The notes beneath the pieces are model-generated. The model did no database searches and was not told the origin of the DNA. It saw only the letters and a program-made list of their open reading frames with translations. The translations under genes were made by a program, and so were the position numbers. A stretch of DNA of 29,037 bases, taken from UHGV virus genome UHGV-0149439; one strand, written 5' to 3'. This stretch comes from a virus. The stretch's first letter is position 1. Each line of letters begins with the position of its first letter. This document shows positions 1,657 through 15,138 of the stretch, piece by piece.

Positions 1657-2832
1657 TCAGTTAGTTTTTTTATTCAAGTGGGTAACAGATGTATTGTTAT
1701 CGTATGCTTTAAGATACCTACCGTAATGTCGAAAAAGCATCTCTGGCCCCTTATGCCCCATTTGCCCCGCCAGCCAGAAAAGGTTAACTCCTCGACTGAT
1801 TAGGCGTGTGGCATATGTGTGACGGGTCTGATAGGGATTGCGGTACCTGATACCGGCTTTCCGTAGCGTTGGCACCCACGCTTTTTTCCTTATTGCATCC
1901 GCGCTGGCCCATGGCTTGTATGTCTTTGGATCCTCAAAGACACAGCCATCTTTCATGAAAGTAAAGGGCTTTTGATCGTTAAGTGCGATTATCGCTTCCT
2001 CAGTTAATTCAACTTTGCGAGTTCCCGCCTTAGTTTTCGTACCTTTTGTCACGCCTGAAACACTGGCGCTCTGTACATGCGCCGTCTTCTCAATGAAATC
2101 AATATCCCTCCAGCGGAGTGCGCATAGTTCCGAGCTGCGAAGTCCTGTCTGGATCGCAAATCTGAATAAGTTCTTCCACTGCTTATTGCCTGTTGATGTT
2201 AACAGCGCGTTCACCTCAGCTGGTGACAGCGGATCAACCACATAACTACTTTCTGCCTCTGATTTATCACTTTGGTACCGTGAAGCTGTCACCAGTGATA
2301 CAGGGTTAATCTGAAGCACACCATCCGTCACCGCCTCATCCAAAGCTGAACGCAGGAATGACAGTTGGTTTCGGATAGTCTTTAATGTTGTTTTCTGGTT
2401 CTGGATCCATGTCTTCAGCGCGGCCGGCGTCAACTCACTTGCAGGAAAAATATGAAGTGATGACAGCGCGCTTCGGCATTTCTTATATCCACCAATTGTT
2501 GAAGGGGATAGTTTTCTCGTTTCACAGATAACCAGATACTCGTCCAGGTACATCTTCACCGTTTTGCCTGCGGCAGCGTTGCCGAAAATTTTTAACCGGG
2601 TAGAACGGGGAAAGTATTCTGCATAAACAAATGTCCCCCTCTCGATCTTGTTATGGATTTCGCCGAGTGTGCGCTCGGCGTATTTGATGTTTTTAGGAGT
2701 TACGTCCAGATTAGAAAGGGGCTCACGGCATTTAACCCCTTTATAAGTGAAAGTAATATTGATGGTTTCGCCGTTGCGGTGTTTCCTGATGGTTACGCCG
2801 CGCGGGAGCTTAGGCGATTCTGTCGTGCCCAT
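1657..2832 (-). CDS. int: Tyrosine site-specific integrase (lambda Int family), 391 aa
   Basis: Size and C-terminal catalytic region typical of tyrosine recombinases (R...H-x-x-R...Y arrangement, HTYATRL... context); GAGG Shine-Dalgarno 8 nt upstream; excisionase immediately upstream. Confidence 0.93.
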   Translation of the reverse strand: MGTTESPKLPRGVTIRKHRNGETINITFTYKGVKCREPLSNLDVTPKNIKYAERTLGEIHNKIERGTFVYAEYFPRSTRLKIFGNAAAGKTVKMYLDEYLVICETRKLSPSTIGGYKKCRSALSSLHIFPASELTPAALKTWIQNQKTTLKTIRNQLSFLRSALDEAVTDGVLQINPVSLVTASRYQSDKSEAESSYVVDPLSPAEVNALLTSTGNKQWKNLFRFAIQTGLRSSELCALRWRDIDFIEKTAHVQSASVSGVTKGTKTKAGTRKVELTEEAIIALNDQKPFTFMKDGCVFEDPKTYKPWASADAIRKKAWVPTLRKAGIRYRNPYQTRHTYATRLISRGVNLFWLAGQMGHKGPEMLFRHYGRYLKAYDNNTSVTHLNKKTN

Positions 2833-3011
2833 TTTGCAACCTCATTAAGATCAATCCATCTTTCCTTAACGCCGTCGACCTTTAGCACCTGAACCCCTTC
2901 ACGCCATACTCCACGTTGCACACGTTTGTTGATGGCATCCGGGGTTTCGCCAGTCTCTTTGCAATAAGTTGAGATGGGAACACAATCGAGGCTCAGCATA
3001 TATTTCTCCAT
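2793..3011 (-). CDS. xis: Excisionase-like small DNA-binding protein (72 aa; alternative start at 2999 has a better GGAG Shine-Dalgarno)
   Basis: Small basic protein directly upstream of and overlapping int (40 nt), the classic xis position. Confidence 0.65.
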   Translation of the reverse strand: MEKYMLSLDCVPISTYCKETGETPDAINKRVQRGVWREGVQVLKVDGVKERWIDLNEVAKWARQNRLSSRAA

Positions 3012-3062
3012 ACAATCCCGGCTGCACCCGGTAGTTTGATATTGTTTATTAGCTGGTTATTG

Positions 3063-3614
3063 TTAGTTGGTTTTCTTTAGTCCAAAGTAAAGTCCTGCGG
3101 CTATGCTTATTATGCCTGCAGCTAGAACACCAATAATCCAATAAAATAATGTTATAAATCGTTCTAACTGTTTGTCTGAGTAATCACTCATAACTTTTAA
3201 TGATGTGCTCAATGACTCCATATCTTTCTTCATGAGAGGTAAAGCCATTGCTTTTTCAGGACTATTTCCAAGTATATTATTAAGCGTGGATATCTTTTTC
3301 TGTATGTCATCAACTTTTACTTCCAACGCTTCTATTCGTATATTATCTGGGGTAAGGGTTGAAGTATTTTTTAAGGCACTTAACGTGTTTCTTACCTGAA
3401 ATATCTCATCCCTATAGGTGCTTATTTCGTTCATGAGATGATCTGTATCTATTTTTTTATCATAAGATGTAGGTAATGAAACATTTACTATTGAAGTGGC
3501 TTTATCTTTTATTTCTAAGGTCAAAGGAATGAGTATCGATCCCAAAGCGACCAGCATAAGAATAGGGGATAGTATTGCTATACTCTTTGCTAATGCGTTA
3601 CTTGTAAATGACAT
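3063..3614 (-). CDS. Hypothetical two-TM coiled-coil membrane protein (183 aa), low-GC
   Basis: Hydrophobic helices at both N- and C-termini with a charged heptad-like middle; GAGGGA Shine-Dalgarno before the ATG; TTGCAA -35-like element at 3651-3656. Confidence 0.7.
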   Translation of the reverse strand: MSFTSNALAKSIAILSPILMLVALGSILIPLTLEIKDKATSIVNVSLPTSYDKKIDTDHLMNEISTYRDEIFQVRNTLSALKNTSTLTPDNIRIEALEVKVDDIQKKISTLNNILGNSPEKAMALPLMKKDMESLSTSLKVMSDYSDKQLERFITLFYWIIGVLAAGIISIAAGLYFGLKKTN

Positions 3615-3801
3615 GAGTCCCTCTTCATAGTATTGTGTAGTACGTTTTTATTGCAACTTACTGTTATGGATAGTTTTTTGTTAAAGTCATTGAGAGATTA
3701 GCATGTTTTAGCGTTAATTCATTGCTTTAATGAGGCCAAAACTAATATTCCAAGCCCTGTCTCATTTGCTTAATGACACTATAGGCCAACAGACAATTTA
3801 A

Positions 3802-3900
3802 TCATGGCAGCGTCCAGTGTCGATTTGATTTATTCATAAACATACTCGTATCCAGTAAGCCAAGAAAATCTGGCACTACGGTCATGCGGTCATTACTCAT
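3802..3900 (-). CDS. Candidate small ORF (32 aa, MSNDRMTVVPDFLGLLDTSMFMNKSNRHWTLP), below the ORF-track size cut-off
   Basis: ATG preceded by GAGGG with a 7-nt spacer; same orientation as the leftward operon. Confidence 0.3.
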   Translation of the reverse strand: MSNDRMTVVPDFLGLLDTSMFMNKSNRHWTLP

Positions 3901-4209
3901 GGTTTTACCCTCGTTATGGCGGCTGCCACCGCCGAACTTTCTCCATACACAACAGAGAAGGGCATCTGCATTAGTCGGCGGCTTGCAGAGACCGCTTTCT
4001 TTTTGCCCGGGTGGATTGGGTTATGAGCCCGTCGCCCGGTGATGCCCTTTTCTGTTGTGCCCTGAAAAAGGCTGGCGGTTACCGGACAAGTGGGAAAACA
4101 CCGGGCCGCCAGAACAGGGAGTTACTTGTTATTGCTTTAGCCTGCTTTTAACCACATCAGGCGCGGTGGTATCCTTCTAAGTCGCTACAACCACGAAGGA
4201 ATTTTTTTT

Positions 4210-4449
4210 ATGAGCAATGTTACTTATCTCAACCATGCCAGGCTCGATGCCATTGAGTTGGCTATATCAAGGCTGGCTATTGCTATTACAGAGGCTGAAG
4301 GACCACATACTAAAGAGCTTGAAAGTTCTATCGCCCATTTCCGCGCGCTATTTGAAAAGCCTGATATCACTGAAAAAGAGCGCGAAACCTACCTCAGGAC
4401 GATAAGGTTGTTGGATCCATTAAATAGCGACCCTACCGAGCCGTTCTGA
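4210..4449 (+). CDS. Hypothetical protein (79 aa)
   Basis: ATG with AAGGA Shine-Dalgarno 9 nt upstream; its 3' end overlaps the convergent ORF 4420..4725 by 30 nt. Confidence 0.4.
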   Translation: MSNVTYLNHARLDAIELAISRLAIAITEAEGPHTKELESSIAHFRALFEKPDITEKERETYLRTIRLLDPLNSDPTEPF

Positions 4450-4725
4450 ATCGAGGCGTGCCGCTCTTTCCCTTCGCTCTAAAATCGCCTCAACAATTTC
4501 GACTCCATTGAGGCGCTTCTTTCCATTAATGTCCTGCTGGACCTCTTCTAATGCTGTTTGCGCAAGCTGAATGCGCGATTCAGTCCCGGAATTTGGCTCG
4601 AGCTGTTGAACTCGCTTAGCATCCTCCAGCAGTAGAGCAATGATGTGCTTCAGTTCGTTTGCGTCCACCGTGAACTCCTTTGAAATTTTAAGTGTTAGCG
4701 AATCATCCGGTTCTTCATATGCCAC
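4420..4725 (-). CDS. Hypothetical protein (101 aa), first ORF downstream of the left operator (lambda N position) but not N-like
   Basis: GTG start without a clear Shine-Dalgarno; charged helical composition; position immediately left of the OL-like repeats. Confidence 0.35.
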   Translation of the reverse strand: MAYEEPDDSLTLKISKEFTVDANELKHIIALLLEDAKRVQQLEPNSGTESRIQLAQTALEEVQQDINGKKRLNGVEIVEAILERRERAARLDSERLGRVAI

Positions 4726-4783
4726 CGACGGCTACTTCGTGGGCGTCCTGCCTGTTCGCTATGGAGTAGACAATAAAATTAAA

Positions 4784-4821
4784 TTGCGAATAACGCAAGT
4801 AAATAATTGCGAATTGCGCAA
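4784..4821. promoter_or_regulatory. Left operator candidate: two 15-bp sites TTGCGaataaCGCAA (4784-4798) and TTGCGaattgCGCAA (4807-4821)
   Basis: Perfect inverted half-sites TTGCG/CGCAA with 5-bp spacers, centres 23 bp apart; related sites recur between cI and cro. Confidence 0.5.
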
Positions 4822-4833
4822 TATTAGGTGCAT

Positions 4834-4858
4834 AAAAAAACCGCCATAAAGGCGGTTT
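4834..4858 (-). terminator. Intrinsic terminator downstream of cI
   Basis: Hairpin ccgcc-ataaa-ggcgg followed on the minus strand by a 7-nt U-tract. Confidence 0.6.
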
Positions 4859-4876
4859 CAACATTGATATGTAGCG

Positions 4877-5569
4877 TCAGGCGTGACGTTTGAATGATTG
4901 AGATTGGCTTATCATTACTTTCCCAAAAATGTAAAAACGGTGTTCGTTAGTCTTGTCCACGGACCATTCTCTATATTTTGGGTTATCCGATATCACCAAC
5001 AACTTATCAGGTATCATCTGTAATCGTTTGACGTAAATTTTATCATCAAAACCAAATACATAGATTCCATCACCATCGAACTCATGAATAGAGATATCAA
5101 CGAAGAGAAGATCACCAGGCTCGATTGTCTCAGCCATACTGTCGCCTCGAACGTTGATTACCTTTACTTGATCTGCCGTTCTTCCGCCGAACATCGCTAG
5201 CGCACGTTCATTGTTGTATTCGATTGACCTGATGACATCAATGATGTCGCTGCCTTGAATAAAGCCGCCACCAGCACTGGCACTAACATCAAGAATCTCC
5301 ACTCTAAACACAGATCCATCTCCAGAATGTGGATTACTACCACTGTATTCACATACAGTAGTTTTATTTCCACCTGGAGTAAATAGATCAGCAACGCTAA
5401 CGCCTAAAGCTTGAGCATATTTGCTAAGTGATTGTTCAGTAAATGACTTCTGCTTGCCAGTTTCTACACGCGAGATGTTAGCTCCGTCGACACCAACGGC
5501 TTCAGCAAGATCAGCGATTTTTAGACCCTTCGCAGTGCGAAGTTCTCTTATGCGGTTTCCTATGTTCAT
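4877..5569 (-). CDS. cI: CI-type prophage repressor: N-terminal HTH, C-terminal S24 LexA-like autopeptidase (230 aa)
   Basis: N-terminal HTH (IADLAEAVGVDGANISRVETGK); C-terminal region with GDSM (catalytic Ser) and a downstream Lys; divergent from cro. Confidence 0.9.
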   Translation of the reverse strand: MNIGNRIRELRTAKGLKIADLAEAVGVDGANISRVETGKQKSFTEQSLSKYAQALGVSVADLFTPGGNKTTVCEYSGSNPHSGDGSVFRVEILDVSASAGGGFIQGSDIIDVIRSIEYNNERALAMFGGRTADQVKVINVRGDSMAETIEPGDLLFVDISIHEFDGDGIYVFGFDDKIYVKRLQMIPDKLLVISDNPKYREWSVDKTNEHRFYIFGKVMISQSQSFKRHA

Positions 5570-5589: not shown

Positions 5590-5652
5590 TTGCGTGATGT
5601 GCAAAGCAACTTGCGCAAGTCGTATGTTCTAATTAATATGCGTTTTACGCAA
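5590..5652. promoter_or_regulatory. Right operator/promoter region between cI and cro
   Basis: Operator-like sites TTGCGtgatgTGCAA (5590-5604), palindrome TTGCGCAA (5611-5618), ATGCGttttaCGCAA (5638-5652); candidate cro promoter -35 TTGCGC (5611-5616), 17-bp spacer, -10 TAATAT (5634-5639). Confidence 0.5.
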
Positions 5653-5666
5653 TTAAAGGAGGGTAT

Positions 5667-5912
5667 ATGCAATCACCGTTACGAATCTTGCGTAAATCGC
5701 AAGGTATGACTCTTTCCTATGTAGCAAAAGGGGTTGATATCGACCCGGGAAATCTAAGTCGGATAGAGCGAGGGCAGCAAATTGCTTCCCTAGATATTGC
5801 TGAACGTCTAGTCCGTTTCTTCGCGGGAAAAATCAATGAGCTAGAAATCCTTTATCCACACCGCTATTCGAACTGTACAGGCGCGAGTACAGACATAAAA
5901 CCACAGGAATAA
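5667..5912 (+). CDS. cro: Cro-like HTH regulator (81 aa)
   Basis: AGGAGG Shine-Dalgarno; HTH segment MTLSYVAKGVDIDPGNLSRIERG; divergent from cI. Confidence 0.8.
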   Translation: MQSPLRILRKSQGMTLSYVAKGVDIDPGNLSRIERGQQIASLDIAERLVRFFAGKINELEILYPHRYSNCTGASTDIKPQE

Positions 5913-5922
5913 GGGGTTAACC

Positions 5923-6474
5923 GTGGGTAACGAACCAATCTGGAAAGTCGAACGTCAGCCTAGTTGGCTGGTGGTAGCGATTAAAAAAACGATTACCGAT
6001 CTGCCTGGTGGATATTCTGAGGCTGCGGAATGGTTGGGCGTGACAGAGAACGCATTGTTTAACCGCCTTCGTGTGGACGGGGATCAGATCTTCCCTATGG
6101 GATGGGCGATGGTGCTACAGAAAGCCGCCGGTGTTAGCTACATAGCAGATGCGTTTTCTCGTCAAACAGATAACGGGATTCATATCCCTGGTGCAGCACC
6201 AGAAACAGAGAACGAAGAAATTGGCTTAAAGCTGGCTGAGCTGGTGGGCAGGCTTGGGGATCTGGTCAACGCATACCGTCGATACATCGATGATGGTGTA
6301 GTTGATAAAGGGGAGTGGGACAGTCTGAATGAAATCGCCTACCAGTTCCGGGTAACGCTTATGACGTTCCTGAACCTGATTTCACGAGTTTATTGTCTTC
6401 CTGAAAAGAGTGACGCCCGCGAGTGTGCAGCTCCGGGCGCCTTGGCGAACAAATCTTCGAGTATGGAGAAATAA
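5923..6474 (+). CDS. CII-like phage regulatory protein (183 aa); family assignment tentative
   Basis: Position immediately after cro; AAGGGG Shine-Dalgarno then GTG; HTH-like segment AAEWLGVTENALFNRLR. Confidence 0.45.
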   Translation: MGNEPIWKVERQPSWLVVAIKKTITDLPGGYSEAAEWLGVTENALFNRLRVDGDQIFPMGWAMVLQKAAGVSYIADAFSRQTDNGIHIPGAAPETENEEIGLKLAELVGRLGDLVNAYRRYIDDGVVDKGEWDSLNEIAYQFRVTLMTFLNLISRVYCLPEKSDARECAAPGALANKSSSMEK

Positions 6475-6826: not shown

Positions 6827-7673
6827 ATTAACCGGCTACGTATGGGATGGTTGCGCGGCGTCGGGCATGAAGTTGTCTAGTGTCGCGATCATGGCTCGCC
6901 TTGCTGATTTCAGCAGCGATGAGGGGGTGTGCTGGCCGTCCATTGAAACTATTGCTCGTCAGCTTGGCGCGGGGCCGAGCACTATCAGAACGGCAATCGC
7001 TAAGCTTGAAAAAGATGGCTGGCTCACGCGTACACAGCGCCGCAATGGTAACCGTAATGCGTCGAACGTTTACCGCCTGAATGTGGCGAAACTTCAGGCT
7101 GCCGCATTTTCTCAACTGTCAGATTCTGACACGTCAAAATCTGACGCATCAAAATTTGACGCCTCAAAAGCTGACCCGTCGAAATCTGGCAAAAACGGCG
7201 GTTTTGACCCGTCAGAATCTGGCGGGGATCCGTCAGTAAAATCAACACAAGATCCACAAGTAACTTCAAAACCCTCTTGTCCGGTTGCGGCGCAACCAGA
7301 CCCTGAAGTCGTGATTACTGACCAGGCGATCTTAGTTTTGTCCCATTTGAATCAGATCAGCGGATCCCGGTATCAGAAATCAAAAACATCCCTGGAGAAC
7401 ATTCGTGCCCGACTGCGTGAGGGGTACAGCGTTGCAGACCTGCAACTTGTTATCGACCTGAAGCATGAACACTGGCACGAGAACGACGAGCAGTACCAGT
7501 ACATGCGCCCGGAAACGCTGTTCGGCCCGAAGAAATTCGAGAGCTATCTGCAAAGCGCTACCCGCTGGGAGCAGAAGGGACGGCCTAAACGCGCTGACTG
7601 GGGTGCGAAAAATCGCGATGTGATGGCTTTTGGTCCGGTTGATACAAGGATTCCAGAGGGGTTCAGAGGATGA
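6816..7673 (+). CDS. Phage replication initiation/organiser protein (N-terminal winged-helix region, repeat linker, conserved phage C-terminal domain)
   Basis: N-terminal HTH-like region (SIETIARQLGAGPSTIRTAIAKLEKDGWLTR); C-terminal DLQLVIDLKHEHW...ETLFGPKKFESYL block typical of phage replication proteins; internal iterons. Confidence 0.7.
   Translation: MSTKLTGYVWDGCAASGMKLSSVAIMARLADFSSDEGVCWPSIETIARQLGAGPSTIRTAIAKLEKDGWLTRTQRRNGNRNASNVYRLNVAKLQAAAFSQLSDSDTSKSDASKFDASKADPSKSGKNGGFDPSESGGDPSVKSTQDPQVTSKPSCPVAAQPDPEVVITDQAILVLSHLNQISGSRYQKSKTSLENIRARLREGYSVADLQLVIDLKHEHWHENDEQYQYMRPETLFGPKKFESYLQSATRWEQKGRPKRADWGAKNRDVMAFGPVDTRIPEGFRG
7126..7218 (+). repeat. Iteron array (candidate origin) inside the replication gene: four tandem 15-bp repeats plus one offset copy
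   Basis: ctgacacgtcaaaat / ctgacgcatcaaaat / ttgacgcctcaaaag / ctgacccgtcgaaat in perfect 15-bp register (7126-7185), fifth copy ttgacccgtcagaat at 7204-7218. Confidence 0.6.
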
Positions 7674-8551
7674 CGTTAAACAAATATTGCCAGGCGCTGG
7701 TGGCACTACGTAGCCAACCAGCCCACGAATTGAAAGAAGTTGGCGATCAGTGGCGGACACCGGATCTGCTTTTCTGGGGTATCAACGCGCTATTTGGACC
7801 ATTAGTTCTGGACTTGTTTGCTGACGACGACAACGCGAAGTGCCCGGCATGGTACACCGCCGAAGATAATGCGCTGACGCAGGACTGGTCTGAACGTCTT
7901 GCAGAACTGGGTGGCGCTGGTTATGGCAACCCACCGTATAGCCGTTCGCAGTACCACGAGAAACAGGCGATCACCGGCATGACGCACATCATGAACTACG
8001 CAGCAGCCCAGCGCGAAAAGGGCGGGCGTTATGTATTCCTGATAAAAGCCGCGCCGAGTGAAACGTGGTGGCCGGAAGATGCCGATCACATTGTATTCAT
8101 TCGCGGGCGCATTGGGTTCGATCTGCCTGTGTGGTTTGTACCGGCTGACGAAAAACAGAAGCCCACCAGCGCGTTTTTTGCCGGTGCCATAGCTGTATTC
8201 GATAAGTCGTGGCGTGGTGAGCGGTTCAGCTATATCAACCGCACAGAACTTGAGGAAAAAGGGCGGGCATTTATGGCGTTGGCTCAATTCGCCGTTGGTA
8301 AAGAGCAAACAATTGCAATGCAGGCAGCCAGGGAACCAGCAGCAACACCGGAAACTGAGTCACGAATCTGGCCTCTCGAGGTTGGTCTGGTGTTTAACCA
8401 GGTGGAAGGCGTTGATGTATTGAGCGAGGCCCAGCAGAACAAACTGAAAGCCAACATCAATCAACTCTGGCTGGAACGAACGGCCACCAGCGAAATTATC
8501 ACAATTGCGCGTGGTCTTGTTGGCAGCATGCAGGGGGTAACCCATGCGTGA
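7670..8551 (+). CDS. DNA N6-adenine methyltransferase, phage Dam-like (293 aa); no adjacent endonuclease
   Basis: GYGNPPYS (DPPY/NPPY motif IV of amino-methyltransferases); start overlaps the upstream stop. Confidence 0.75.
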   Translation: MTLNKYCQALVALRSQPAHELKEVGDQWRTPDLLFWGINALFGPLVLDLFADDDNAKCPAWYTAEDNALTQDWSERLAELGGAGYGNPPYSRSQYHEKQAITGMTHIMNYAAAQREKGGRYVFLIKAAPSETWWPEDADHIVFIRGRIGFDLPVWFVPADEKQKPTSAFFAGAIAVFDKSWRGERFSYINRTELEEKGRAFMALAQFAVGKEQTIAMQAAREPAATPETESRIWPLEVGLVFNQVEGVDVLSEAQQNKLKANINQLWLERTATSEIITIARGLVGSMQGVTHA

Positions 8552-10478
8552 GATTATCGTTGATAACTTTGCTGGTGGCGGTGGTGCATCAACGGGTATT
8601 GAACTGGCGATCGGACGCAGCGTGGATATTGCGATCAACCACGACGAAAACGCCATTGCGATGCACAAGACGAACCACCCGGACACACTGCATTATTGTG
8701 AATCCGTATTTGACGTGGATCCTGTAGCCGCCACCGGAGGTAATCCAGTCGGACTGGCGTGGTTTAGCCCGGACTGCCGACACTTCTCGAAGGCAAAAGG
8801 CGCAAAGCCTGTGAAAAAAGAGATACGCGGTCTTGCCTGGATTGTTCTGCGTTGGGCACTGGCGAAGCGACCGCGTGTGATGATGCTGGAGAACGTGGAA
8901 GAGTTCAAAACGTGGGGACCGCTGCTGGCCGATGAAATGCGTCCGGATCCTGCCCGCACTGGCGAAACATTCAATGCATTTGTCGGCATGCTGTCCACTG
9001 GCATTCCTGCTGACCACCCGGCACTGTCAGAAGTTTGTGAGTTTCTGTCTATTGAAAGAGGTAGCGAGCAGGCGCAACTGCTGGTGGATGGGCTTGGATA
9101 TGATGTTGATTATCGCGAACTACGCGCGTGTGATTACGGCGCGCCGACGATCCGCAAACGCTTCTTCATGGTTATGCGCTGCGATGGCTGCCCAATCCAG
9201 TGGCCTGCTGTTACCCATGGGGATCCTAAGTCTCTGGAGGTGCAGAGCGGCAGGCTGATGCCATGGCGTACCGCTGCGGAATGTATCGACTGGAATGTTC
9301 CGGCCCTGTCCATCTTCGACCGCAAAAAACCGCTGGCGGAGAACACTCTGAAGCGGATCGCGCGCGGCATACAGCGCTTTGTTATCGAAAGTGCGTCGCC
9401 GTTTATCGTGAAGTGTAACCACACAAGCTCAAAAAATTCGTATGACGCTTTTCGCGGGCAGTCGCTGAATGAACCATTACAGACCATTACTAAAAAACTC
9501 GGCTACGCGTTAGCCGTTCCACACCTGACAAAATTCCGCACTGGCGCAACCGGGCAGCCCGTTACCGAACCTGTCCCGACGGTAACCGCTGGCACGTCAA
9601 AACGCCCGGGTGGGAATGGGCATGCTCTCGGGATTGTTGAGGCTGCACTGACGCCATTCCTGGCGGGTAATGGTGGTAGTGAATACCAGGCTAAACCGCG
9701 CCCGCTGGATAAACCTGCTCATACCATTCTGAAGCAATCCCGCGCCTGTCTGGTTGCGCCAGTGATAGCCCGCCAGTTTGGGGCCAGCGTTGGCCATCGG
9801 GCAGACGAACCGAGCGCAACCATAACCGCTGGCGGTGGCGGTAAATCTCAACTGGTAACGCCTACGCTGATCCAGATGGGTTATGGCGAACGACCTGGAC
9901 AAGAACCGCGTGTGCTGCGGCTGGATAACCCGCTGGGGACCGTTACTGCAGGCGGAAATAAATTTGCGACGGTGAGCGCGTTCCTGGCGAAACACTACGG
10001 CGGTAACTATACGGGGCCTGGTGTCAGTATGGATGAACCCGCGCATTCAGTGACCACTGTCGACCATCATGCAGTAGTTGCCTCTCATCTGGTGAAACTG
10101 CGTGGAACATGCCGCGACGGGCAACGCCTGGATGGGCCCATGCCAACAATCACCGCTGGTGGCCAACACGTGGGTGAGGTACGCACATTTCTCGAGACGT
10201 ATTGCGGGGAAAGTGACGATGAATGGCTGGTAACTATCGATGGGGTGAAATACCAGATCGTTGATATCGGAATGCGCATGTTGCAGCCGCATGAACTCTA
10301 CAAAGCGCAGGGCTTCCCCGATGGATACGTTATTGATCAGGACTACCGTGGAAATCGCTATGCAAAAGATAAGCAGGTAGCCCGCTGCGGTAATGCGGTA
10401 CCACCACCATTCGCCAGGGCGCTGGTGGAGGCAAATCTTCCGGAACTGTGTGCAGTGCAACAACAGGAGGTGGCATGA
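8544..10478 (+). CDS. DNA cytosine-5 methyltransferase with an unusually long variable region of repeated modules (644 aa)
   Basis: Motif I FAGGGG, catalytic SPDCRHFSKA (PC motif), ENV motif MLENVEEF, C-terminal CGNAVPPP; five T(I/V)TAGG-type repeats in the variable region. Confidence 0.88.
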   Translation: MREIIVDNFAGGGGASTGIELAIGRSVDIAINHDENAIAMHKTNHPDTLHYCESVFDVDPVAATGGNPVGLAWFSPDCRHFSKAKGAKPVKKEIRGLAWIVLRWALAKRPRVMMLENVEEFKTWGPLLADEMRPDPARTGETFNAFVGMLSTGIPADHPALSEVCEFLSIERGSEQAQLLVDGLGYDVDYRELRACDYGAPTIRKRFFMVMRCDGCPIQWPAVTHGDPKSLEVQSGRLMPWRTAAECIDWNVPALSIFDRKKPLAENTLKRIARGIQRFVIESASPFIVKCNHTSSKNSYDAFRGQSLNEPLQTITKKLGYALAVPHLTKFRTGATGQPVTEPVPTVTAGTSKRPGGNGHALGIVEAALTPFLAGNGGSEYQAKPRPLDKPAHTILKQSRACLVAPVIARQFGASVGHRADEPSATITAGGGGKSQLVTPTLIQMGYGERPGQEPRVLRLDNPLGTVTAGGNKFATVSAFLAKHYGGNYTGPGVSMDEPAHSVTTVDHHAVVASHLVKLRGTCRDGQRLDGPMPTITAGGQHVGEVRTFLETYCGESDDEWLVTIDGVKYQIVDIGMRMLQPHELYKAQGFPDGYVIDQDYRGNRYAKDKQVARCGNAVPPPFARALVEANLPELCAVQQQEVA

Positions 10479-12553: not shown

Positions 12554-12574
12554 GTGTATGGAGCGCAAAGAAGC

Positions 12575-13264
12575 ATGAATCAACAAGACCTGAATTTTGT
12601 AAGAATAGAATTGCGCCGCGCGCTACCTGACCTCTCTGGGGGAACAAAAGGGCAGCTTGAGGCTTTCAGTGAACACCCACCAGCAGACAAAAATGCCACC
12701 CCGCGCCGTGGTATTCATCTCGTCGAACTCGAAGGAGAGAAGGGGCCACGCTTTGTTAACTCGCTTTCCGCGCCACTGTATGTGCTGGAAACACGCAGCC
12801 GCCGCAGGCCAATGCCGCCGATAAAAGATGCGGAATTTGAGTCCGCGCCGTGGCGTAGGGCAGTGTCCGCGCTTAGTGGATACCAGCAGGCCTGGTTGCG
12901 GTACTGCTACGGTTTTGACCTTAGCTATAAGCACCAGGTGATGATGTGTGAATACGTCTGGAAAACTTATCAGAAATGCCTGGGTGAAAACTCGCTTCAG
13001 GAGCGCGTAGTAAAGAAACTGATAGGCCTGGTATGGCTGGCAGGGCAGGAAATTACCGCAACCCGAAACAATGAAACCTATAAAGACTACGCTGGCGCGG
13101 CGCTGGCCCGTATGGTTAGCGTTGACCGTTCGACTTGGTTGCGCGTCTATTCAGGGCACTGGGCAGGGTTAAAGGCTGCTTTTACCCAGCTTGATGAGTC
13201 TGCGCTGGTCATGGCTCTTGAATACTATGAGGATGAAGAAGCACTCAAAGTGGCAGAAATGTGA
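12575..13264 (+). CDS. Putative late-gene antiterminator (Q-like) (229 aa from ATG 12575; track ORF opens at GTG 12554)
   Basis: Called mainly from context: last early-region gene, followed by a promoter-like AT-rich segment and an intrinsic terminator ahead of the lysis genes. Confidence 0.45.
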   Translation: MNQQDLNFVRIELRRALPDLSGGTKGQLEAFSEHPPADKNATPRRGIHLVELEGEKGPRFVNSLSAPLYVLETRSRRRPMPPIKDAEFESAPWRRAVSALSGYQQAWLRYCYGFDLSYKHQVMMCEYVWKTYQKCLGENSLQERVVKKLIGLVWLAGQEITATRNNETYKDYAGAALARMVSVDRSTWLRVYSGHWAGLKAAFTQLDESALVMALEYYEDEEALKVAEM

Positions 13265-13427: not shown

Positions 13428-14279
13428 ATGAAAATAGATAATCCCGAAAATCCACTTGAACGAAACGATTTTACGATGGATGACTTCCATCACTACTTAA
13501 GGGAGTTTGATAAAGCTGTATGTGAAGCGAATGCTGTAAGTCAGGGGGTTGGTGTGCGAATGGCTGAGGCTTTTAAAGGGTGGTCTACATACATTTTTTC
13601 ACGAATCTGCATTCATGCTTCAATAATGATTTCCAACGTACCAAGATCAAGATGGGCTAAGCGGGATTATGACTTTTGGGATTTTTCGGCGATTGCACCT
13701 CATGTAAGAGCGATTCTGGAAGCTGAGTTATTGTTTATGTATTTATCTGAGAATCCAGATTCAACTGAGGAGTGGTCAGCAAAGTTGAATGTCATGCACA
13801 TGAATGATTGTGTAAAGAGAATTGAGTTATTTACATCTAGTGATAATACGAAAGCATTGGATTTTTATCATGAACAAAAAGATATAATAACTGAGAGACT
13901 TAATAACAACCCTGTTTTTTTATCCCTTGAACAAGGAACCAGAAAACGTTGCTTGACTGGAAAAGCGCTTATGATTCCAAATCGAGATGAGTTATTGGTT
14001 AAACTGGGAAAAGATCCAAAGTCATTTAAAATAATGTTCGATTTTTTATCTCATTATACGCATATACTACCTATGTCATATTATAAAATGGAGCCAAACG
14101 GAAGGGGAACTGGTTGTTTTAACAACTATGACTTTGGCTATATGATTATGGGGATGATTATTTGTACTGAATCCTTGACTAAGTGTACAGATAGATTAGT
14201 AGAACTTTTTCCTGATGTTAGACGGTTGCGAAAAGGAACTAAATCAAAATTCACGTTAGGGCCTAAACCAACAAAATAA
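13428..14279 (+). CDS. Hypothetical protein (283 aa), low-GC cargo gene between the Q-like gene and the lysis cassette
   Basis: Long ORF with markedly lower GC than neighbours (by eye); no TM segment or family recognised. Confidence 0.75.
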   Translation: MKIDNPENPLERNDFTMDDFHHYLREFDKAVCEANAVSQGVGVRMAEAFKGWSTYIFSRICIHASIMISNVPRSRWAKRDYDFWDFSAIAPHVRAILEAELLFMYLSENPDSTEEWSAKLNVMHMNDCVKRIELFTSSDNTKALDFYHEQKDIITERLNNNPVFLSLEQGTRKRCLTGKALMIPNRDELLVKLGKDPKSFKIMFDFLSHYTHILPMSYYKMEPNGRGTGCFNNYDFGYMIMGMIICTESLTKCTDRLVELFPDVRRLRKGTKSKFTLGPKPTK

Positions 14280-14468: not shown

Positions 14469-14585
14469 ATGAAAGAAGGGGATTACTGGATTCAGCATGT
14501 GTGTGTTGTACAGGTGGCGTTTTACACCGATGACACTGTAGATGACCTGAAATGGGGAAAACAATCAAAGGAGTCTGGCACCTAA
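14469..14585 (+). CDS. Candidate small ORF (38 aa, MKEGDYWIQHVCVVQVAFYTDDTVDDLKWGKQSKESGT)
   Basis: GAAGGA a few nt upstream of overlapping ATGs; terminator-like hairpin downstream; weak support. Confidence 0.2.
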   Translation: MKEGDYWIQHVCVVQVAFYTDDTVDDLKWGKQSKESGT

Positions 14586-14674
14586 CCAGAGTCGATGATA
14601 TTTGCCATAACAGAGAGGCCGAAGTGCTTGAAGGTCCTCTCGCTCCATTAATGTAAGTAACCGTTCATACTTCG

Positions 14675-14700
14675 AGGCTGCCAGATGGCGGCCTTTTTTA
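14675..14700 (+). terminator. Intrinsic terminator upstream of the lysis cassette
   Basis: Stem aggctgcc / ggcggcct (one G-U pair), loop agat, followed by TTTTTT. Confidence 0.5.
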
Positions 14701-14745: not shown

Positions 14746-15138
14746 ATGTCCGATCCTGTAACTGGCTCTGGTGCTATGCTCGGAGGTGGGCTGGTGGGTT
14801 CCGTAATTTACGGAATTTTCACTCATACCGATTTTGGCGTTGTATTTGGCGCGTTTGGCGGCGCGGTTTTCTACGTCGCAACGGCTGCAAATCTTACCCG
14901 TGGTCGTCTGGCTGCATACTTCATGACATCGTTCATTGTTGGTGTGCTTGGGGCCGGATTATTAGGTTCAAAACTCTCAGCCTGGACAGGCTACAGTGAT
15001 CGCCCGCTTGATGCGCTCGGTGCCGTGATTGTATCTGCCATCACTATTAAGGTGCTGACATTCATCAACAGTCAGGATCTGAACAGCCTGTTCGGTATGC
15101 TTTCGCGTCTGCGCGGAGGAGGGGGCAATGTTAAATGA
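14746..15138 (+). CDS. Holin-like membrane protein (130 aa)
   Basis: GAGGGGG Shine-Dalgarno; glycine-rich hydrophobic segments; first gene of the lysis cassette. Confidence 0.6.
   Translation: MSDPVTGSGAMLGGGLVGSVIYGIFTHTDFGVVFGAFGGAVFYVATAANLTRGRLAAYFMTSFIVGVLGAGLLGSKLSAWTGYSDRPLDALGAVIVSAITIKVLTFINSQDLNSLFGMLSRLRGGGGNVK

Follow-up and report, generated by a model that had tools for sequence, protein, structure and literature searches.

The DNA considered here, the 29,037 nucleotides (nt) of UHGV virus genome UHGV-0149439 (hereafter the window), is a lambdoid prophage, and the element in question lies in a gap at positions 3615-4209 that holds no open reading frame (ORF) of 60 amino acids (aa) or more in any frame. 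The gap is flanked by ORFs at 3063-3614 on the minus strand and 4210-4449 on the plus strand. A first-pass annotation had singled it out as one unusual gap of 600 base pairs (bp). It is indeed free of ORFs of that size, but it is not a single object: a mosaic junction (or the region upstream of a moron) accounts for about 215 bp, and a conserved leader for about 270 bp. The interest of the locus lies in the GC-rich segment, a member of a very widespread and apparently undescribed family of phage RNAs, and not in the micro-ORF remnant. This segment has a GC fraction of 0.52-0.56 at 3850-4150, against 0.31-0.37 at 3025-3850, and the inverted repeat GGGCATC...GATGCCC reported in it is the inner portion of a far longer repeat, whose 39-nt arms (3928-3966 and 4041-4079) are 77% complementary. 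Among related prophages the segment 3829-4173 is kept while both flanks differ. Given the repeats, the folding relative to shuffled sequences (see below), and the conservation of 3829-4173 amid changing flanks, the content of the gap is far beyond chance.

Judged from its sequence, the minus strand of 3901-4173 is a conserved untranslated leader before the first leftward-early gene, which is now a stub of yfdP. Its predicted parts are, in order, an intrinsic terminator, a three-way-junction RNA of about 125 nt (the core), and a small hairpin. At the 5' end stands an optional module, CCACCGCGCCUGAUGUGGUUAAAAGCAGGC (4169-4140), which in phage LLS lies just downstream of the predicted leftward promoter pL; it is present in only 36 of 129 distinct upstream contexts, and no consistent -10/-35 pair could be made out by eye just upstream of it across the types. 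Next come a terminator-like hairpin of the minus-strand minimum free energy (MFE) structure (4112-4072) and the U-tract CCUUUUUC (4071-4064), directly 5' of the core. Together they form a G+C-rich hairpin with a U-tract on the transcribed strand, that is, a predicted intrinsic terminator. In relatives the stem varies in its letters but remains paired, and U5-6 always follows, at a constant distance to the core.

The core is closed by P1, a 20-bp helix with its 5' strand at 4060-4041 and its 3' strand at 3966-3947, supported by covariation and by G·U pairs possible on the minus strand only. P1 encloses P3, a conserved, irregular and invariant arm (4039-4007) with the tip GGGCUCAUAACCC at 4018-4030, and P2, a variable hairpin (4006-3968) that is 39 nt long here and 14-16 nt long in SfV-type relatives. 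This length difference of about 25 nt is not a multiple of three, and the base of the P2 stem covaries among GC, AU and CG. Beyond P1 lies the conserved AUGGAGAAAG (3946-3937). It is complementary to the terminator U-tract, so P1 is extended, to 27 bp in all; RNAalifold makes the same pairing, and the GGAGAAA within AUGGAGAAAG is kept in nearly all relatives. A last hairpin, P4, GGCGGUGGCAGCCGCC (3933-3918), separates the core from the Shine-Dalgarno (SD) sequence at 3912-3908 and the AUG at 3900. In relatives the stem of P4 differs in its letters and keeps its pairing, and the loop is mostly UGGCAG, UUGCAG or GUGCAG; UUGCAG-type loops recur in both P2 and P4. The core always sits 35-60 nt upstream of an SD sequence and start codon, with the covarying P4 between them.

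Two leaders of relatives have further features. SfV-type leaders (contig L003, about 3090-3150, minus strand, and many relatives) carry a conserved G/U-rich AUUGCUGUGUGUAGUCUUGGCGG that runs into the terminator hairpin and is not found in the window; it resembles the 3' end of a small RNA (sRNA) of the Hfq type. The LLS leader (L010, about 1800-1900, minus strand) has a second long hairpin, closed by CACAAC...GUUGUG, with its own terminator before it, and the leader of the window type has the appearance of this LLS form after a deletion from one CACAAC repeat to the other.

The 32-aa micro-ORF at 3802-3900 on the minus strand is present as described, with GAGGG at 3908-3912, 7 nt upstream of its ATG. 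In a BLASTP comparison with YfdP of the WP_001515608 type (123 aa), 20 of the 24 N-terminal residues are identical (E = 2e-13), and in related prophages yfdP is annotated at exactly the position of the micro-ORF. On account of this match and this shared position, the micro-ORF reads as a truncated gene, a stub of the first 24 codons of yfdP (homologous portion 3829-3900) that retains its own ribosome-binding site, the GAGGG read from the sequence as the former SD of yfdP. The last eight codons are unrelated AT-rich DNA, and homology to other prophages ends at about 3829. A cIII- or Kil-like small protein of the leftward operon, one of two earlier proposals, is therefore not supported: the ORF consists of YfdP residues 1-24 plus eight unrelated codons, and no intact conserved ORF exists. 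The other proposal, a structured or regulatory RNA, fared better, as the GC-rich segment is a conserved RNA with helices supported by covariation.

The evidence for the fold comes from shuffling and from covariation. Compared with shuffled sequences, 3900-4200 has folding z values of -5.8 (plus strand) and -4.5 (minus strand); the isolated SfV-type core has the same three-way junction as its MFE structure, with z = -7.3. The alignment-based test used 46 representatives with mutual identity below 95% and 500 shuffles. In it, 94.9% of the cells were paired, against 90.2% in the shuffled alignments, and changes on both sides of a pair were found in 75 cells, against 24; none of the 500 shuffles was as high on either measure. 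When the structure was slid by 1-3 columns, at most 54% of the cells were paired. The double-sided changes across related prophages thus support the helices. Four pairs of P1 covary (C-G/A-U, G-C/C-G, A-U/G-C and G-C/A-U), and the outer stem of P3 covaries both within and between two architectures, the leader form (E type) seen in the window and a sister form (K type) described below.

These changes bear on the idea that the element is a site or relic at the level of DNA, such as a piece of a tRNA-fMet gene or a former site of attachment or recombination at a mosaic hotspot, without selection on an RNA. The element does stand at the boundary of exchanged flanking modules and shares 14 nt with tRNA-fMet, and phage attachment sites are often found within tRNA genes. 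A DNA relic is nevertheless very improbable in our judgement. It would not be expected to show compensatory double changes in P1, P2 and P3, or pairing of P2 that is kept despite changes in length; G·U is tolerated on one strand only, the signature of an RNA rather than of DNA; and the element is distant from int and att in the window.

The strand follows from several observations. Four positions of P1 carry G·U on the minus strand only and would be A·C mismatches on the plus strand; the pair at columns 25-103, for example, is U·G in 40 of the 46 representatives, and G·U is found in 12/46 and 10/46 elsewhere. Pairing in P1 reaches 94.9% on the minus strand and 88.6% on the plus strand, and in the P1 extension 90.9% and 49.4%, respectively. 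The orientation of the sister form is fixed by its tRNA array. From the variable G·U positions, together with the direction of the operon, the terminator, the SD sequence and the orientation of the sister form, we conclude that the predicted RNA has the leftward-operon (minus-strand) sense.

This conclusion leaves little room for the alternatives that the first-pass annotation would suggest, a functional micro-ORF protein or a plus-strand antisense sRNA directed against the leftward transcript, and we regard them as highly improbable. The SD sequence of the micro-ORF is good, read on the plus strand, two invariant positions of P3 would be U·G and the overall folding is slightly better, and small plus-strand ORFs are annotated in some records, mEp460_036 among them. 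On the other side, the micro-ORF amounts to the N-terminus of a truncated YfdP followed by an unrelated tail of eight codons, and no convincing plus-strand promoter was found. A plus-strand RNA is rejected on the G·U pairs at those positions that vary in P1 and in its extension, which favour the minus strand, and on the K type, which fixes the sense strand. Protein coding across the core is likewise rejected, since P2 indels of about 25 nt, not multiples of three, break any ORF across it; the core is also near-invariant at all codon positions.

Three further candidates were considered and dropped. An upstream ORF starting from the AUG or GUG just 3' of P1 fails in the Kp4866 type, which has ACG; it has no SD sequence, and its peptide is not conserved. 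Pairing of a CAU loop with the downstream start codon would extend beyond the AUG only in some yfdP types and hence is not general. The GGCGGTA in the terminator stem resembles the ops element of RfaH, but it lacks the C3:G8 feature.

The tip of P3 imitates part of a tRNA. Its 14-mer, CGGGCTCATAACCC at 4018-4031 (minus strand), is an exact match to the metY tRNA-fMet of E. coli MG1655; one exact match is found in the window, where 0.03 would be expected by chance even if one mismatch were allowed. In tRNA-fMet, CGGGCUCAUAACCC (4031-4018, minus strand) corresponds to positions 28-41, comprising three G-C pairs and the loop CUCAUAA with the anticodon CAU. A run of G-C pairs in the anticodon stem is the hallmark of initiator tRNAs. 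The arm also has the 7-nt loop, the U33 and the purine 37 of a tRNA anticodon arm (GGG-CUCAUAA-CCC), and a stem pair covaries in the K type. As the initial homologue searches had required the arm sequence, its conservation was rechecked with 13 nt left free. Among K-type copies found in this way the loop is invariant (97/97), and the pair 31-39 is G·U in 91, A-U in four and G-C in two. In the E type, CUCAU is unchanged at 146 of 148 loci, the two exceptions being contigs from a search aimed at changed anticodons; there is variation at positions 37 and 38. Scans made directly for variants of the anticodon returned 2, 0 and 0 contigs, against more than 120 with the canonical loop.

The sister form came from a distant BLAST search with the core, which found a second architecture in Klebsiella-type phages, for instance Chronis and GZ7, and in 98 IMG/VR contigs. 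This K type is about 70 nt long (L152, 2509-2578, and L151, 2509-2574, both plus strand) and has the same P3 and P2 with compensatory differences, together with a P1 of only 6 bp (GGCCUG/CAGGCC). A covariance model made solely from E-type copies picks it up at E about 1e-8. RCCA follows P1 in 67 of 69 distinct copies, even though the sequence further downstream differs. At 26 of 29 loci the K type starts 6-7 nt past the CCA of the last tRNA of an array, downstream of Q; one locus has it between tRNA-Asn and tRNA-Ser. It looks like a gene for a tRNA-like small RNA, which may be released by tRNA-processing enzymes. Contig L143 has both architectures on the same strand and 8.5 kb apart, the leader form at 6041-6168 (plus) upstream of yfdP and the tRNA-like form at 14615-14681 (plus), an arrangement that is unexpected on a lambda-like map.

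The distribution of the element is wide. The window type is found in 306 of 5426 complete E. coli genomes, Nissle 1917 included, and the commoner SfV type in 2494 of them, CFT073 included, mostly as one copy each. The element occurs in 71-85 phage records, its carriers including SfV, SfII, SfIV, mEp460, cdtI, 2H10, ST64B, phiNP, LLS, and Stx2a and Stx2c phages, the last two with an SfV-type core. Among species-representative genomes it is present in 13 named enterobacterial genera (Escherichia, Shigella, Citrobacter, Klebsiella, Enterobacter, Kosakonia, Buttiauxella, Pseudescherichia, Mixta and Erwinia among them) and in one contig labelled Chryseobacterium sp. (L017; Bacteroidota). The L017 copy is a typical enterobacterial one and is probably due to contamination or mis-binning. 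None of the records examined has 3901-4173 annotated as an RNA, and some have small "hypothetical protein" calls there; the conserved sequence, in DNA or RNA spelling, has no occurrence in the searchable full text of the literature. In every case the element has the cI side on one flank and the leftward operon's first gene on the other, and in LLS it fills most of the 628-bp intergenic region between cI and yfdP. The first gene downstream varies (two yfdP types, rdgC and others), as do the genes on the cI side.

The position before a start codon invites a simpler explanation, in which the element works in cis on processing, stability or translation: P1 would be an RNase III site that parts the leader from the mRNA and, with P4, sets the translation or half-life of the first gene, and the likeness to tRNA would have no function. 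P1 with its extension amounts to 20-27 A/U-rich bp with one habitual mismatch (columns 17-111), the core keeps its place 35-60 nt ahead of the SD sequence and start with a covarying hairpin in between, and RNase III sites do occur in phage early leaders, as in the lambda N leader and the T7 early sites. An RNase III site, however, has no need of an invariant 33-nt arm, and it is P3, not P1, that is most conserved; the K type retains P3 and P2 and yet has a 6-bp P1 and no adjacent start codon. The downstream genes differ, which makes gene-specific translational control unlikely. As a whole we find this explanation unlikely.

The map of the prophage suggests where the leader transcript may start. 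The operator motif TTGCG-N5-CGCAA occurs between cI (S24/LexA-type; 4877-5569, minus) and cro (5667-5912, plus, followed by a cII/YmfL-like gene), at 5590-5652, and again at 4784-4821, just left of the strong cI terminator (4836-4860, minus). At the latter place the OL operators TTGCGAATAACGCAA and TTGCGAATTGCGCAA are accompanied by a pL-like promoter on the minus strand. With this operator set beside the cI terminator, pL is most likely situated at about 4780-4830, and the region 4784-4860 is the likely source of a leftward transcript across the leader. SfV has a matching layout, with TTGACA-16-CATAAT directly after the cI terminator. The same operator motif is shared by OL/OR of this prophage and the unrelated viral contig L093 (about 2219-2306), in which only about 40 nt separate the start of the core from the pL-like promoter that carries these operators. 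Between pL and the leader of the window lie a 101-aa ORF (4420-4725, minus; phrog_30817 and relatives) and a 79-aa ORF (4210-4449, plus; phrog_28250). The two are convergent and overlap by 30 nt (4420-4449), and a pL transcript would need to cross the 79-aa gene antisense before it reached the leader.

On the other side of the leader, the minus-strand spacer at 3615-3828 (GC 0.31-0.37) has no close match in the 5426 complete E. coli genomes or in 50,697 phage records; matches start at 3829. A promoter-like site, TCGACA-17-TAAATT, runs from 3823 to 3795 on the minus strand, directed at the 183-aa, AT-rich, membrane-type ORF at 3063-3614 (minus). The spacer probably contains the promoter and 5' untranslated region of this ORF, being the upstream region of an acquired cargo gene, and would mark a mosaic junction. 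The 183-aa ORF has 33% GC and no PHROG family, and it stands between xis and the yfdP stub in place of the usual early-left genes; excisionase (2793-3011, minus) and integrase (1657-2832, minus) follow. Beyond the integrase is a 259-aa ORF (836-1615, minus) of phrog_7259, a family of unknown function, and both the 183-aa and the 259-aa ORFs look like cargo genes. In the replication region a 293-aa ORF (7670-8551, plus) is followed by a 644-aa ORF (8544-10478, plus); relatives have an annotated phage N-6-adenine methyltransferase gene at this position. The Q antiterminator gene (12554-13264) is followed further right by the holin and large terminase genes. The Hfq-binding RNA isrI has an Rfam match at 14564-14660 (plus; 47.5 bits against a threshold of 45), downstream of Q between a DUF5677 ORF (13428-14279) and the holin gene (14746-15138), which is a late-leader position. 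Just past the lysis genes lies a gene of the Ivy family of lysozyme inhibitors (17205-17627, plus).

A leader RNA close to pL brings to mind the put RNAs, and a put-like function should be considered, in which the nascent core binds the transcribing RNA polymerase and allows read-through of early-left terminators in phages without N. The short distance from the promoter in L093 and the place of the LLS core within the 628-nt leader between cI and yfdP would suit such a role, as would the conservation across genera if the binding partner were a conserved host machine. Each phage has a single left-side copy, as HK639 does, and neither in the rightward nor in the late operon of the window did a covariance model scan find another. 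The authors who described LLS saw no homologue of N and themselves raised the possibility of a mechanism like that of put (PMC12315714). By eye no boxA-like sequence of a nut site was seen, no systematic search for N being made, and the first pL genes (here the one for 101 aa, elsewhere that for a zinc-finger protein or SfV orf33) fall into different PHROGs, all of unknown function, and their products are not rich in arginine. The loop of P4 is semi-conserved, and the hairpin has no candidate binding protein. The core is downstream of pL in all cases examined, as a put-like RNA should be. Less favourable to this reading, the only clear terminator is upstream of the core, beyond the influence of RNA that emerges after it, and no convincing one was found downstream. 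An RCCA-ended sister form in tRNA arrays suits a processed, free RNA and not a nascent one bound to polymerase. Adding to this the lack of any likeness in sequence or structure to HK022 putL or the HK639 RNA, we consider a put-like role quite unlikely.

What we tentatively regard as the best explanation overall, with a chance not far short of even, is a leader with a terminator and a three-way-junction RNA that mimics tRNA and is read via its initiator anticodon arm. The structure, the strand, the conservation, the identity with tRNA-fMet, and the existence of an RCCA-ended sister form in tRNA arrays all have direct support. The remaining steps are proposals. The RNA would be transcribed from pL after induction and would then probably be released or stabilised via the long P1 duplex, which has the look of an RNase III-type substrate; the sister form would instead be released by RNase P and 3' trimming. 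The RNA would then act by being recognised as the anticodon arm of initiator tRNA. The reader we prefer is an anticodon nuclease specific for tRNA-fMet, of the enteric VapC type, for which the RNA could serve as a decoy; after it we would rank the 30S P site with IF3, and methionyl-tRNA synthetase (MetRS). The tRNA cleaved by enteric VapC is tRNA-fMet, and a role against defences that target tRNA has been proposed for the tRNAs of phages (PMC10264068). A broader statement, doubtful although conceivable, would be that temperate enterobacterial phages carry an undescribed family of initiator-tRNA mimics on two chassis, the early-left leader and an RCCA-ended "mini-tRNA" of about 70 nt. Its members would shield phage translation as decoys for tRNA-fMet-specific anticodon nucleases (VapC/MvpT-type toxins or defence systems) or act on initiation itself, by filling the 30S P site or by titrating IF3, and the RCCA form might even be charged by MetRS.

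It should be pointed out that a number of observations weigh against this best explanation. The identity of the reader of the arm is a guess, and RNase III cleavage of P1 is suggested by helix length only. A transcript from pL would have to get past the terminator directly upstream of the core. The window form has neither an RCCA end nor an acceptor-like terminus, so tRNA-type processing is inapplicable to it; where a tRNA has an acceptor stem, discriminator and CCA, it has a helix of 20-27 bp followed by AUGGAGAAAG. ARAGORN makes no call in the window, nor at the element in L003, L010, L151 and L152, and the Rfam tRNA model RF00005 has no match to the E or K form at E <= 10. The two stem pairs below GGG/CCC are mismatched in the E type. 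Since P3 is highly conserved at all of its positions, the constancy of CAU does not point to the anticodon in particular, and the 14-nt identity could in principle be the relic of a captured fragment of a tRNA gene. Finally, P3 contains two invariant C·A oppositions, which would become U·G on the plus strand. P3 alone therefore gives no preference for the minus strand; one of the two oppositions is U-A in the sister form and in one E-type variant.

If the proposal is correct, one of the commonest elements of E. coli prophages, carried by prophages of about half of the complete genomes, would be an unannotated structured RNA that imitates the anticodon arm of initiator tRNA. It would add an RNA player to early-left operon expression in lambdoid phages that lack N, and it would bear on why phages carry tRNA-like genes and on how they cope with host nucleases directed against initiator tRNA. 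Annotators would gain a concrete family to model in a region that is now left blank or filled with spurious small "hypothetical proteins". Because the element is short, occurs in a single copy per phage and is found in culturable phages (SfV, mEp460, LLS, ST64B, phiNP and Chronis), the hypotheses are directly testable.

Comparison with known RNAs sets the element apart. At gathering thresholds, Rfam 15 gives nothing in the window except isrI elsewhere, and at E <= 10 there are only four chance-level matches in 3550-4300, in a search that included the AgvB, AsxR, C4, IsrK and STnc families. The AgvB, AsxR and Pas sRNAs sit in the Q/lysis region and are covered by Rfam; PreS/LPR1 of lambda is a different, lambda-specific sRNA; and the M3-like RNA of phi80 and HK639 is a simple hairpin without similarity to the element.

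With HK022 putL and putR and the putL-like RNA of HK639 the element has in common that all are cis-encoded structured RNAs in the early-left leader of phages without N, independent of their neighbours, and HK639, too, has a left copy only. The folds differ, as put RNAs are built from two adjacent stem-loops (PMC9378689) instead of a three-way junction, and the clear terminator is upstream of the element in the window but downstream of put. A comparison by eye finds only a shared 8-mer, and covariance model R1 finds nothing in L006, L007 and L147 at E <= 10. For their action, put RNAs of the HK022 type need the zinc-binding domain of RNA polymerase beta-prime. Like the RNase III sites of the lambda N leader, sib and T7 R, the element has an extended duplex, mostly A/U and mismatched at an internal position, that is located shortly ahead of a ribosome-binding site in an untranslated early leader. 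Those of lambda and T7 are simple irregular hairpins, whereas in the window the duplex has a three-way junction and its invariant arm inside it. Among mRNA leaders, the textbook example of mimicry of an anticodon arm is the thrS operator; there is no synthetase gene near the element, and autoregulation of the thrS kind is therefore inapplicable.

The closest comparisons are with tRNA and with phage RNAs that are processed as tRNAs are. The phi80 M3, P4 CI, and T4 species 1 and 2 RNAs are substrates of RNase P, and the arrangement of the K type, which begins 6 nt after a tRNA CCA and ends in RCCA, fits the same route, RNase P followed by 3' trimming; we know of no initiator anticodon arm in any of those RNAs. 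The window RNA is not a cloverleaf, having three arms with no D arm and no T loop. With initiator tRNA (metY/metZWV) it nevertheless shares the 14 nt of CGGGCUCAUAACCC, including the G-C run and the CAU loop, and to these the K type adds an acceptor-like stem of 6 bp, a 3' RCCA, and a slot in a tRNA array.

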